A stretch of 23,276 nucleotides of DNA from a virus (lineage: Duplodnaviria; Heunggongvirae; Uroviricota; Caudoviricetes), in the IMG/VR virus record IMGVR_UViG_2636415416_000005, positions 1-23,276 of that record; one strand, given 5' to 3'. This document shows positions 3,001 through 9,000 of the stretch, in pieces (position 1 is the first letter of the stretch; each line of letters begins with the position of its first letter). Position numbers: made by a program.

Positions 3001-6000
3001 CTGCGACATGCCCTGTTCCGTCAGCGGCAGGGTTTGTGCTTCCAGCATTGCAGCCAGTTGTTCCGGGGTACAGCCTTCCGGCAGCAGGCAGCCGACGCTT
3101 TGCAGGACGCGCCCGGACTGATAATCACCGTTGTCACAGACCTGCCACAAATAGAGTGGGGCCTGAAAACCGAGTCGCTTACCGCCGTTTATCAGTTCGC
3201 GCCAGCCTTTGTCGAGTTGCACTGTCTGGCGGCTTTGTTCTTCTGTCAGCGGCCAGATGATGCCGTCCAGCGGACGGCTGCGGCGCAGTTTTTTTAAGGC
3301 GGTCAGCAGTGTGACATCAGGCTCCGCTGATGGCCTGCCGCCATATATCAGTACTGTGTGGTCGCCCTCCAGCCAGTGTTGCCCGGTCAGCCCCGGCGCA
3401 ATAGCCTCTGCCTGTTCAGGCTCGCCGGTCACCAGCAGCAGACGGATTTTACGCCGCCAGAACGGGCCGTAGCGGTCGCGCAGGAAGGCGGCGAGTTCCA
3501 CCATTGCCGGATGACGGCTGTCGGCTTTCTTTGTCGTCACCGCACGATAGTCATCTCCGGCGGCAAGTTGTCTGCGGAGTTCAAAGTTCTGTACGGCAGC
3601 GTGGCGGTTCAGCAGATGATAAACCCCCATGATAATCAGAAAGACCACGCCTGCGGCAATCACGCCAGCCATCCAGTACATTTGCTGTGAGCTACCCGGT
3701 TCAACGCCCAGCAATGCCTGTTTACGGTGAATAAACGTGCAAAGCGCAACCACAACAGCCACGGTCATGACGATGGCAGGCCCTGAAACAGAACGGGGCC
3801 GGAGACGGTTTAATCCCGGAACCACTATGATGCCTCCTGTGGGGAAACGAATGGCGACACCACGGTCGCCCATGAATAATGCCCGCCCTGAACGCCGCTG
3901 AGCGTCAGTTGGGGGTGTTGTGATTGTATTGCCGCCAGCGTTGCCGCAGCGACGGACAGCCATGGCGCAGCCGGTCCGGAGCGCCCCAGAAAGGCATCCA
4001 GCTCGTACATCAGGGCTTCCTGAGCAAACGGCTGGTTCAGGCTTAACAACGCGGCACGTTGTTCCCTGTCCAGTTCGGCAGTCCATATGCCGGATATGGC
4101 ATATGGCTGCACCGGCATCCAGTCCAGCGCCTGTGCAATGCCTGACGCCATCATCTCTGTATCTGTGATACGTTCAGGACGATGCAGCAGGGCCAGCGGC
4201 GTAAGCGCGGTTTGCGTCAGTCGGTTTGCCAGCAACAGCGCGGTGGCGGATTCTGCCGTCCGTTCCGGGTTCTTCGGTTCAAGTCGTACGGAAATCACCA
4301 GCAGTACGGCCTTTTCCTGAATAAAGTTGTCCAGCCAGCCGTCCACGGCGGCCCGCCCCCGGCTCCGGGGCAGAAAACAGACGGGCTTCCGGGAGTCCGG
4401 CTTTTTGCCATTCGTCCTGCCAGATAGTTCTTAAAGCGCGCAAAATTATTCAAGATAGATATGGAATTCTTTCAAGATAAGCCAGAAGCGCGCATATGGA
4501 AGTTATTCAAGATAAAACAGCGGCATTAACCGCTAATGCCAGTCAGTTAAGCAACTGACTGGCTCTTTTTCGGGGCTGTGGGGTATTTCCAGGGCCTCTC
4601 CTTTACCACTCTCGGGAAGGCCCTTTCCCTTCTCGTCGGTAATTTCACAAGTTGTCCCATACTTGCAAGATCGCGCATCAGCTCCGGTATACGTCCCGGT
4701 GAAGCGCCCTGCAATGTCATCAGCATTCTCATCACCATTCCGCATGATTCTGAGAAACTCAGTTGATTCGGCCAGTAACCTTTCAGATGTTCCGCCATTT
4801 TAATCATCTGATATCTCACCAGATTATAAGCCAGTAAGACACCCCACAGCTCTTGCTCCACAAGCTCCGGCTTTTTACTTCTCAGCGTCAGCCTGCTCAG
4901 TTGCATCGTCTGTTTTATCTCCCTGTATCCCAGTTCGATTTCCCAGCGATGACTGTACAGATCCGCCATTTCTCCTCCGGGGAAGCGCATGGCGTCCGTC
5001 ATCGACGTCAGCAGATGGCAGACTTTTCCTTTGCGCGTCACGGTCAGCAGGCGGGCTGTCACTTCATTTCCCAGTCCCGGCCACTTTTTTCGTGCCTGCG
5101 GGCTGGTTTTCAGCTTCACCAGATGATCGCCTTTACCCAGTTTTCTGAGCTCTTCATATTGCGCTCCCTTTCTGAGAGGTATCATCCAGTGGCGGTGTTC
5201 TCCCGCCAGGCTCCAGGCATTTAACAGTCCCAGTGAGTAATAACCTTTATCCATTAACGTCAGAGTGTTATCGCCGGTTTGTTCTATAAGTTGCTCAGCA
5301 AGCTCATTTTCGCTGTTCTTCATCGTGCCGAAGGCTGCAGCCGTCAGCAGATGGCTGGTCAGTTCCATCTGGCAGACCATTTTGACCTGCGGGTAGAGCG
5401 CCGGGTTCCCGGCATGTGTCTGGCGGGGGAAGGCTGCATCGTTCTCTGGTGTATCCGGTGTGCGCCAGAACACACCATCGATGGCCAGCAGGGTCAGGCC
5501 GCACCAGTGCGGATGCGGCGTGGCGTTATGCCAGAGCTGCGCTGTTTTCGTGAACACGCGGCGGACAGCCTCACTTCCCAGGCGCTGGCGGGCCTGAATA
5601 ACGGCACTGGGGGCAACGAAGGGGCGATTGCCCGGCAGCATGATGTCCAGGCGATTCACAATCTGGTGAAGAGGTTCTTTACGCTCAAGCGCCATGCCAA
5701 CAATACACCAGACCATCATTTCGAGGGGAAGACGGCGCTTGCGTAGCGTTACAGTACCTGATTCGGCAAGGCAACGAGAGATGAGTTCGGGGTCGAGGTA
5801 ATCCCCCAGAGAAGTCAGTGGGTTACGCAGAGAATCGTAACGGGATACCAGATCAAGAGCCTGTCCAATGTGCATAAAAAAATCCGGAAACAAGTGAGCG
5901 TTTCCGGATTCTTACACAGCCACTGGATCGGTCAACTGATCCTTAACTGATCGGCATTACGGCATTAACCGCTGCTTTTTTATTCATTAAGTGGGATCAC

Positions 6001-9000
6001 TTCGGGTAAGGCTGAATCCTGAATAGCTTAGTGTTTAGTCGCTTTTTTGCGCGCTTGTTCAGGAACCTGATGTAACGATATTGATTAAATTTGTGCGCCA
6101 CGGCCCGCTCCTTATTCGCTCGTAAATATTCGCCGCGCTTCCCTCCACGATTAATCGCATTCATCGTTATCTCGTGATACCACTCACCGTCCAGTTCGTA
6201 GAATGTGCTTTCATGGCTGCCAATAAAATCAAAATTTGACGCCTGATACACAACACCTGCACGCCCGCAACGTTCGTCTGCAAAGGACTGAACCCACTCC
6301 ACTGACGGATACAGTAACCTGATGGTTTTCAGCGCGTAGCTGATGGCCCGTGATTCAGAGTTGCGGGGCATGTCGTCGTGTAGCCACATGCGGTTCAGTT
6401 CCATATAGCCCCGGTTATCCGTTTCAAGCACAACGCGACGCCCTGAGTTGGGGTTAAGGGCATATCCCCACTGAAGAACACCAACCAGATCACGTCCACT
6501 GAATACGCCCAGATGCAACCAGGAGTTATTCACAAAACGGCGGGAATAATGCTTTGTCTGAATGATTGTGCGGGCCAGCCAGCAGGATATGGTTTCAACG
6601 CGCAGCTCCCTTGAACCATAGCCAACAATCCGGCCTTCATACTCAATAACGCAGGGTTTTGTCAGAATGCGTGATTTCTTCTCTTTTCCCACAATACAGC
6701 TCCGTGGGATGCTCCCGGGCACTCGATATGACAATGTAACGTTTACAGCGAGGACATTTGATTTCTATATGCTTAAAACCTCCTTTAAACAGCAATTTAT
6801 TGCAATTTTTACAACGAACAGAGTCCATAATTTCCCCCAGTGTAATAACAGGATATCGCTGCCCGGAGGGCTGGGGGTATTTAATCACACTTGATGCAAA
6901 CCGACGATCGATATGATTCTATCGATCGTCATAAACTATACAAACTGATTATTTAATCGCCTGGTCTGAACGCTCTCACCTCGTCCAGTGTGGGCAACAG
7001 AGAAAGTTGTTCTTTCATCTCCCGCTGACAGCGATAAATCTCATCGTTGCGCTCAACAATGGCCTGTATCATCGCTGTGGCCAGTTCCTCAAGTTCCTGC
7101 GTCGTCAACTGCACCTGCTGATTATCCGCATCACTCCACGTCATATTTGTTTGTGCCGCGACAGATTTTGCCAGCATGACCACCGGGGACAGGCGGCCCA
7201 GTGAGTCGGGGCCAGCATTCCAGATACGACCGTTCCATTCAAACGTGAACGGCTTCGCCTCCTGTTCTGTGCGCCATGCTTCAATTCCCTGACGTCTGGC
7301 CTCTCTGGCCGCTTCCAGCATTTCTGGTGTCACAGTGAATGGGGCTATCTCACCCCATTTGCCGCTTTGCAGTTCCTGCCAGATTTGCTGACCCGTCGGA
7401 GCGACATCATCAGCGGTGGCTGTGTAGGGGACTGCCTGGTCCCTGTCGTCAAAAAAAACGTCACAGTCTACTGCGCCACTTTCGGTATAACGGGGATTAA
7501 TGATTTTTTTAATTTCCACGGTGCATTCCTCACGATGTGCGAATAAAAAGCCCAAGCATTGCGCCAGAGACATATGTATCCGGCACCCCGGACAGGGCGC
7601 AATATGACCCCGGTAATGAATGCTCTGAACATCCCGTAATGAAATATTGTGGGTATACTATATGCGTTCCGGTGGGAGTACAGGGCGCTGAAATCCCCAC
7701 CGGTCCCAGTCGTGAGCCTCTGTATGACCGCCCCCTGACAAGTCTGATGTCTTTATCACCGTCAGCTTTTCCCTGGTACGCAGCAATAATCAGCCCGCCA
7801 ATGTCAGGGTCTCCCCATCTGTTGCGGACAGAGCTCGCCACGATTCTGTAAATAATATCTTCTGTGGTTATATTTATTTTCACCCAGCCAGTCAGTCTGG
7901 ATATGGGCCAGTAGCAGTAGCGGGTGTGATAAATGGGGCCGTTAATGCCGTAAAAAGTAAGGGATTTGGCTCTGTACCTCGGTTCTGTTGTCTCAGGGCG
8001 TGCATCAGTCCACCGGATGCTGAGCCCCCCTTCAAACCGTGTGTCGGGTATGATGATGCCGTAGGGGCCAGCAACGGAATATTCACCTGGCAGCGCATTC
8101 CTTACCCAGGCCAGGAAATCACTCTTAGTGTCAAAACGGATAACATCTTCAGGCAGAAAAGCACACCCAAAGCCGAATGCGCCGGGTATCGCCAGACGGC
8201 CTTTTGTCCGGTCGTAAATGTCGCTCTGTGCTTCCATCGTGGCCGCACTTTTCAGCCCCAGATTATCCCGGGACTTCTGTTGTGCCTTTTCGCCTGCTGC
8301 TGCGATTTCTGACAGATGGTTAGCCATTTTCAGAGTGCCGGTCAGCGCAGCATCAATGTCATTTTTGGCCTGTTCTGCTGCGCGGGCATAACCTGCGGCA
8401 TCCTGTGCGCTCTGTCCGGCTGCGGCTGCATTTGCTCCTGTGCTTGTCACATCTTCCGCAGTGGCCTTTCTGTCCTCAGCTGTGACGGTTGCATCCTGTC
8501 GGGCTTTCTCCGCAAAACGTTGTGCATCATCACGGGCCGTTGCGGCTGGCGCCACATCCTGCGCCGTCTGCTGTGCGTTTCCGGCTGCGGCCCCGGCACT
8601 CTGCTGCGCCTGTTGCGCCAGCTCTTCGAATTTCTTCAGGGATTCCGGACGCAGGTCAATATCAGTTGCGCCCAGAAAATCATTCAGCGAACCGTCCGCT
8701 GAATCTTCATAAACGCGAATGACACCGATTTCTGAAAGGCGTTGTGCGCTCTGTGTCAGGCGAACGCTGTACACGCCCGGCAGAACGGGGAAGTCATACT
8801 CCCCGCTCTGTGTGGTGACGTGGCTGAAAACGCCTTTCAGAATCCCTGCACGGTTGTGCAGGGAGGTCAGTGTAATGGTTGCGCCGCCCAGCGGTTCTCC
8901 CGTGGGCGTTTTAATCACACCTTTAAGCTGCGGCATCGGGACGCTCCGGCCAGTTGATGGCATCAAAGGAGATTTCATCGGTAGCAGTGCTTAAATCCAG

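Follow-up and report, generated by a model that had tools for sequence, protein, structure and literature searches.

A Mu-type prophage end very probably interrupts a type VI secretion accessory gene upstream of tssM in an insertion-sequence-rich Escherichia/Shigella contig

Did a transposable phage insert into a gene of a type VI secretion system (T6SS), and what was left of that gene? The question is raised by IMG/VR virus record IMGVR_UViG_2636415416_000005, positions 1 to 23,276, hereafter called the window, which corresponds to one complete contig of a draft assembly (AMJQ01000014.1 in GCA_000815495.1, 23,276 bp) carrying all of its relevant genes on the minus strand. A first-pass annotation had placed the right end of a Mu-type genome next to a T6SS locus and had taken the adjoining open reading frame (ORF) for a 5′-truncated T6SS gene, whose 3′ part remained at the phage end. 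Sequence comparison with 5,426 complete Escherichia coli genomes and with related prophages makes it very probable that the end of a Mu-type transposable phage interrupts a T6SS accessory gene upstream of tssM, leaving its 3′ half. The two features that meet at the junction are the following:

3825-4431, minus strand: what remains of a KPHS_23130-family T6SS accessory gene, its 3′ half (codons 204-404), shifted in frame by a +1 indel near 4354-4356; placed by tblastn, homology ending at 4431.
4432-4533, minus strand: right terminus (attR) of a Mu-like prophage, starting TAAAGCGCGC; recognized by identity to the termini of related prophages.

The accessory gene is intact in E. coli YZ3-11 (locus L001), where it encodes WP_001402487.1, a protein of 404 aa (1,215-nt coding sequence) named "KPHS_23130 family T6SS system protein" in RefSeq, and where it lies directly upstream of a 1,110-aa ImcF-related (TssM) gene and downstream of a hypothetical gene. 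The order of the intact cluster, Vgr, M35 peptidase, hypothetical protein, KPHS_23130-family gene, TssM, TssA, and PAAR, is also the arrangement in the window. In tblastn comparisons, residues 228-404 of WP_001402487.1 match window positions 4358-3828 with 97.7% identity, and a second match places residues 202-228 in another frame at 4437-4357, with 92.6% identity over 27 residues. The first two of these 27 residues lie in phage sequence, so the host part starts at codon 204 (Arg204, 4429-4431), and the same comparison found residues 1-203 nowhere in the window. The ORF is truncated at its 5′ end, as had been proposed, with only codons 204-404 of the 404-aa gene present.

The minus-strand ORF at 3825-4346, with 173 aa and a GTG start, is present in the window as the in-frame tail of the 404-aa gene, and its GTG at 4346 is an internal Val codon of the longer protein. 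By this alignment, the 173-aa ORF is a pseudogene fragment and not a gene. Relative to YZ3-11, the remnant has a +1 insertion at about 4354-4356, in a run of C residues with an adjacent substitution. The first-pass annotation had noted that the frame stays open back to a TAA at 4431-4433; it is open as described, but because of the indel it departs from the native frame across the final 75 bases (4357-4431). The TAA itself consists of one host base and two phage bases, and the openness of the non-native frame as far as 4431 is accidental. A 41-nt query over the indel allele gave no match in the complete E. coli genomes, although this query is rich in G+C and a low-complexity filter may have masked it. 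A 154-aa partial protein annotated in Shigella dysenteriae is identical to the remnant, including a distinctive Tyr substitution. Frameshifted and partial forms are common among the relatives of the gene retrieved from public E. coli proteomes, with one frameshifted variant of 202 aa present on 53 contigs, a pattern suggestive of frequent pseudogenization, or of indel-prone runs, in this gene.

Host homology ends at a single base. A query covering 3300-4546 found a match in 1,289 of the 5,426 complete genomes; in 953 of these 1,289, 91% of the query is aligned, at 95-99% identity, and among the matches listed, every one ends at query base 1132, which is window position 4431. With a query centered on the junction, positions 4340-4431 aligned to the T6SS locus of about 1,000 genomes and positions 4432-4534 to seven records elsewhere, and no complete E. 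coli genome spans both sides of 4431/4432. The longer orthologue that was anticipated in intact T6SS clusters does exist: in uninterrupted clusters the gene is not a 173-aa ORF but, as in YZ3-11, encodes 404 aa, and host homology does not run on through 4431-4533 but stops at 4431 in all best E. coli matches. An assignment of 4431-4533 to host sequence was rejected, given this stop and the occurrence of 4432-4534 as a prophage terminus at four unrelated loci.

These four loci are in E. coli strains STEC346 (locus L002), VL40 (L004), STEC388 (L005), and FDAARGOS_943 (L007), where the prophage lies in yhfX, vgrG, fliH, and molR, respectively. Window positions 4432-4534 are 100% identical to the termini in STEC346 and VL40 and near-identical to those in STEC388 and FDAARGOS_943 (range 99-100%). 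The base just outside the terminus differs across the five junctions (t, t, a, g, c), and for this reason the end of the phage can be fixed at TAAAGCGCGC. The same element thus occupies unrelated chromosomal sites in different genomes, namely yhfX, vgrG, fliH, molR, and the T6SS gene of the window, and its lineage is mobile. The segment beyond 4431 is also repeat-rich, as had been remarked: TTCAAGATA occurs three times in the terminus, at 4449, 4471, and 4506 (span 4449-4514), and nowhere else in the window, compared with 0.04 copies expected by shuffling in the whole window and with none of 100 shuffles reaching three. In the VL40 prophage there are three copies at each end, on the plus strand at the left end and inverted, on the minus strand, at the right end. 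These repeats are putative transposase-binding sites.

The complete prophages in STEC346, VL40, and FDAARGOS_943 are 34.6-35.2 kb long, and the left side of the one in STEC388 is disrupted by IS66 and IS26 elements. Across VL40, FDAARGOS_943, STEC346, and STEC388, the prophages have 87-100% nucleotide identity to window positions 4432-22387, are collinear with them, and have the same termini; they differ in the host gene that they occupy, and the IS4, ISSfl1, IS66-family, and 567-bp deletion lesions described below belong to the window copy. The RefSeq annotation of the complete prophages includes Gam, Mor, a gpT-type head protein, a contractile tail, and com-mom at the right end. In VL40, a 698-aa protein has the Pfam domains Mu-transpos_C, HTH_Tnp_Mu_1, and rve, and a 316-aa protein has Phage-MuB_C and AAA.

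The flanks of the complete prophages reveal the length of the target duplication. In STEC346 (prophage ends 6847/42091 in L002), the insertion splits yhfX into two annotated halves, its left flank reading …gcATTC and its right flank ATTCgctg…, a duplication of 4 bp; an uninterrupted yhfX from another strain reads …cagcATTCgctgc…, confirming ATTC as the duplicated sequence. In VL40 (ends 8205/42823 in L004), the flanks share TTCA, and a long VgrG frame reappears when the phage is excised with 4 bp, whereas excision with 5 bp gives a stop. The flanks in FDAARGOS_943, on the reverse strand, share GAAA. The first-pass annotation had expected a duplication of 5 bp, the length made by Mu itself, but 4 bp is the better expectation, since all three complete relatives have 4 bp (ATTC, TTCA, and GAAA). 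By extension from these relatives, the following feature is predicted in the window:

4428-4431, no strand: right-hand copy of a predicted 4-bp target duplication, TTCT.

The left copy of TTCT is predicted to lie outside the window, next to the left end of the phage. The predicted left junction reads …GTGAGAA/TATGACTAGG… (slash at the junction), with an N-terminal fragment ending …GASVR-I-stop; in a longer form it reads …GGGGCCTCCGTGAGAA/TATGACTAGGTAATTTATTCAAGATA…, where the gene's 5′ half, with AGAA as its last bases, meets the phage left end TATGACTAGGTAATTTATTCAAGATA.

The proposed mechanism would begin with DDE-type transposition joining the right end of the phage to the middle of a KPHS_23130-family gene, at codon 204. 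Judging from the near-identical complete prophages, a MuA-like transposase and a MuB-like ATPase would recognize three TTCAAGATA-containing sites at each end, and the transposase would cut the target (here TTCT) with a 4-bp stagger; the 5′ half of the gene would then lie beyond the left end of the phage. The prophage would later have been immobilized by IS4, ISSfl1, an IS66-family element, and a 567-bp deletion, while the T6SS cluster, independently, would have acquired frameshifts in both tssM and the remnant as well as the 1.7-kb tssM-tssA deletion.

Other explanations of the junction were weighed against insertion into the gene. It is vanishingly unlikely that the 173-aa ORF is a genuine short T6SS gene, coupled to tssM, beside which the phage merely landed. 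A gene finder calls the ORF, protein collections hold other 173-aa versions, and the ORF stop overlaps a GTG with GGAGG a few bases upstream of it, yet the ORF corresponds, at 97.7% identity, to residues 228-404 of a protein of 404 aa in which its GTG encodes an internal Val, upstream homology runs on in the other frame up to the phage junction, and the downstream tssM is itself frameshifted and truncated. The short-gene explanation was rejected on the 404-aa length of the orthologue in an uninterrupted cluster and on the tblastn map. An assembly artefact, in which a chimeric contig joins the prophage to the T6SS locus, is very improbable; the source is a draft assembly with contigs ending in repeats, but the join coincides with the first base of a phage terminus that is defined independently in four other genomes, and no repeat is common to both sides that could mislead an assembler. 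A later origin of the adjacency is unlikely, though less so than these two: the phage would first have inserted elsewhere and then been brought next to the T6SS gene by intramolecular transposition of the phage end (adjacent deletion or inversion) or by recombination between insertion sequence (IS) elements, with the 5′ half of the gene deleted or relocated. Such an origin would suit an IS-rich, rearranged genome, in which the window alone has three IS elements and deletions of 1.7 kb and 567 bp, and intramolecular transposition of Mu also yields junctions that coincide to the base with the phage terminus. The predicted N-terminal fragment (…GASVR, I, and stop) was also not seen among the cluster members inspected, but this is weak evidence from a small sample of cluster members, simple insertion is commoner, and all three complete relatives have both target halves or a matching 4-bp duplication.

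Insertion into the accessory gene remains the preferred explanation, and several points weigh against it. The left junction lies outside the window and was not found in any collection searched, and because it lies outside, a simple insertion is not told apart from a later rearrangement at the phage end. The transposase genes of the window copy are likewise outside the window, with the contig ending in an IS66-family element. The KPHS_23130-family protein has no match in Pfam, NCBIfam 20.0, or PDB sequences, neither Pfam nor NCBIfam 20.0 contains an HMM for the family, and the protein may or may not be needed for secretion. Both single-base indels (in tssM at about 2908 and in the remnant at about 4354-4356) could be sequencing errors in G and C runs of a draft assembly.

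The missing left junction was sought in several ways. When the N-terminal 205 aa of the orthologue were compared with a protein collection, no …GASVR-I-stop fragment appeared among the representatives and the cluster members inspected, a weak result from a sample only. A search with the repressor protein adjoining the left end of the VL40 prophage returned representatives other than the exact protein, on one to three contigs of other strains. Exact-pattern scans of species-representative genomes found neither the predicted left junction nor the observed right junction.

On the T6SS side of the junction, the cluster has been damaged in other ways, and the features that record this damage are the following:

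1-535, minus strand: 5′ part of a PAAR-domain gene (T6SS spike or toxin) running off the window start; PAAR residues 1-103 at 535-227 by tblastn.
541-703, minus strand: tssA remnant, its last 53 codons and stop; TssA residues 484-536 at 702-544, and blastn of 252-703 to L001 1245-1696.
703-706, no strand: point at which 1,711 bp have been deleted, corresponding to L001 1697-3407.
706-3768, minus strand: tssM (IcmF/ImcF-related) pseudogene, frameshifted (+1) near position 2908 and cut short at its 3′ end; tblastn and the Pfam families IcmF-related, IcmF_helical, and IcmF_C.

TssM is split between two frames of the pseudogene, with residues 1-319 at 3768-2842 and residues 286-1024 at 2912-696; the frameshift at about 2908 is a 1-base insertion in a G run relative to YZ3-11. 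Also relative to YZ3-11, the 1,711-bp deletion takes out TssM residues 1025-1110 and TssA residues 1-483, fusing the shortened tssM to the last 53 codons of tssA. When a query across the deletion junction (703/706) was used, none of the 5,426 complete E. coli genomes covered at least 80% of it. Beyond the deletion, E. coli W and other strains match window positions 2-703 at 99.4% identity in their PAAR/tssA region.

Since both tssM and tssA are damaged and the accessory gene is interrupted, the T6SS cluster of the window is to be scored as non-functional. The earlier suggestion that the phage disrupted the secretion locus holds in that the accessory gene is split, but the locus has at least three independent lesions, the tssM frameshift and the tssM-tssA deletion among them, and inactivation of the system is not to be credited to the phage alone, or to the phage first. 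Locus and prophage are both decaying, and the order of the lesions is not readable from this contig. T6SS decay in pathogenic E. coli and Shigella lineages is similar in that a cluster carries several independent inactivating lesions (insertion, frameshifts, and deletion), and the window differs in that one of its lesions is a Mu-like prophage. Many mutation loci are reported for the T6SS cluster of enterohemorrhagic E. coli O157:H7 (PMC12981562). Literature searches on the insertion, KPHS_23130, and the contig accession gave nothing useful and found no paper describing the insertion. The event is an ordinary, textbook insertional inactivation, one more case of secretion-system decay in an IS-rich Escherichia/Shigella genome, and its consequences for annotation are that the 173-aa ORF is best labeled a pseudogene fragment and the prophage best labeled defective.

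The first-pass annotation had also described the remnant as translationally coupled to tssM. The stop of the remnant does overlap a GTG in frame with tssM (TAGTG, 3827-3823), with GGAGG a few bases upstream, and coupling is plausible but depends on how the start of tssM is annotated: a gene caller starts tssM at the overlapping GTG (alternative start 3825), whereas RefSeq starts the orthologue at an ATG 57 nt downstream, equivalent to window position 3768. The overlapping GTG is 19 codons upstream of the RefSeq ATG. The true start of tssM may be mis-annotated in this type of cluster.

On the phage side, the terminus is followed by an IS4 copy and by the com-mom pair:

4534-5959, minus strand: IS4, 1,426 bp; Pfam Nterm_IS4 and DDE_Tnp_1, ends TAATGCC(A/G)(G/A)TCAGTTAAG.
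5997-6692, minus strand: mom (DNA modification gene), apparently intact, 231 aa; Pfam Mom, E 1.3e-75 (in 5997-6734), and gene caller.
6643-6828, minus strand: com (translational activator of mom), overlapping the mom start; Pfam Zn_ribbon_Com, E 4.2e-07 (in 6643-6888).

The com-mom pair was correctly recognized as the mark of the right end of a Mu-type genome, with Pfam matches for both Mom and Com and a distance of about 140 bp to the phage terminus once IS4 is taken out. The matching gene in STEC346, VL40, and STEC388 is annotated as Com family, and the window pair has 87-88% nucleotide identity to com-mom of Mu, SfMu, and D108. Canonical IS4 has a length of 1,426 bp, 18-bp terminal inverted repeats, and an 11-13-bp target duplication. 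In the window copy, the two 18-bp inverted repeats agree at 16 of 18 positions, and the target duplication, CGGCATTAACCGC, is 13 bp long, at 4521-4533 and 5960-5972. As read from the sequence, IS4 entered a terminator-like hairpin downstream of mom, and STEC346, VL40, and STEC388 are without IS4 here, their hairpins uninterrupted. The IS4 target contains GGCATTA, which resembles the terminal sequence of IS4 itself.

The remainder of the window is the body of the prophage and the elements that have entered it:

6953-22387, minus strand: Mu-like late region (tail, baseplate, and part of the head), collinear with the VL40 prophage and 97-99% identical to it, with ISSfl1 and a 567-bp deletion inside.
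10355-11655: ISSfl1 (IS4 family) in the tail-fiber region; ends CTGAGGAATCCCC…GGGGATCCCTCAG, 9-10-bp duplication.
22388-23276, minus strand: part of an IS66-family element, inside which the contig ends; Pfam DDE_Tnp_IS66, E 3e-74, homology to the VL40 prophage stopping at 22387.

The phage part of the window is collinear with the VL40 prophage and 97-100% identical to it. The Pfam families of the late region (DNA_circ_N, Phage_Mu_Gp45, GP46, Baseplate_J, and Caudo_TAP) come in a Mu-like gene order. Judged from its sequence, the prophage is defective, being interrupted by IS4, ISSfl1, and the IS66-family element and having lost 567 bp, relative to the VL40 prophage, near 11905-11910 in the genes for baseplate J and a tail protein. 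The IS66-family interruption falls near the major head gene in VL40 (L004) coordinates, and the repetitive nature of the element is probably the reason that the contig ends there. ISSfl1 is present in 9 of the 5,426 complete E. coli genomes, and this rarity hints at a Shigella-type source. Two segments, 8962-10097 and 16972-17707, in the tail-fiber and tape-measure regions, are unrelated to the VL40 prophage, and within the former, positions 9158-9666 are 84% identical to tail-fiber genes of phage Rac-SA53.

The phage resembles Mu, SfMu, and D108 in having com-mom at its right end, Mu transposase and MuB domains in its relatives, several putative-site repeats at each end, essentially random target sites that split host genes, and a Mu-like order of contractile-tail late genes. 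It differs from them in that the window phage has no detectable nucleotide similarity to them outside com-mom. The termini in the relatives are 5′-TATGAC…GCTTTA-3′, that is, 5′-TA…TA-3′, whereas those of Mu are TG…CA; the TTCAAGATA end repeats are unrelated to those of Mu, and the target duplication is 4 bp in all three of the relatives that could be compared. The 4-bp duplication and the TA ends argue against membership in the Mu species group but not against a Mu-type mechanism. The closest tail-sheath proteins in the phage collection, compared at full length, are those of Klebsiella phage Kp4866-3 (75% aa identity), Vibrio phage martha 12B12 (55%), and Shewanella phage MuM16-2 (54%), and these phages are too distant from the window phage for nucleotide matches.

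A tentative interpretation, somewhat less likely than not, is that these prophages form an enterobacterial Mu-like lineage to which nothing in the phage collection searched is closely related. Their transposase would use 3′-TA rather than 3′-CA ends and 4-bp rather than 5-bp staggered cuts, implying an active-site spacing unlike that of the Mu transpososome, and the lineage would have hit T6SS genes in two independent genomes (the window and VL40). If confirmed experimentally, a 4-bp duplication with TA termini would amount to a modest but genuine variant of the Mu transposition paradigm. The VL40 prophage lies at codon 8 of vgrG (L004 8186-8205 and 42823 onward), a second independent insertion into a T6SS gene, and two such insertions among the five known sites may be due to chance.

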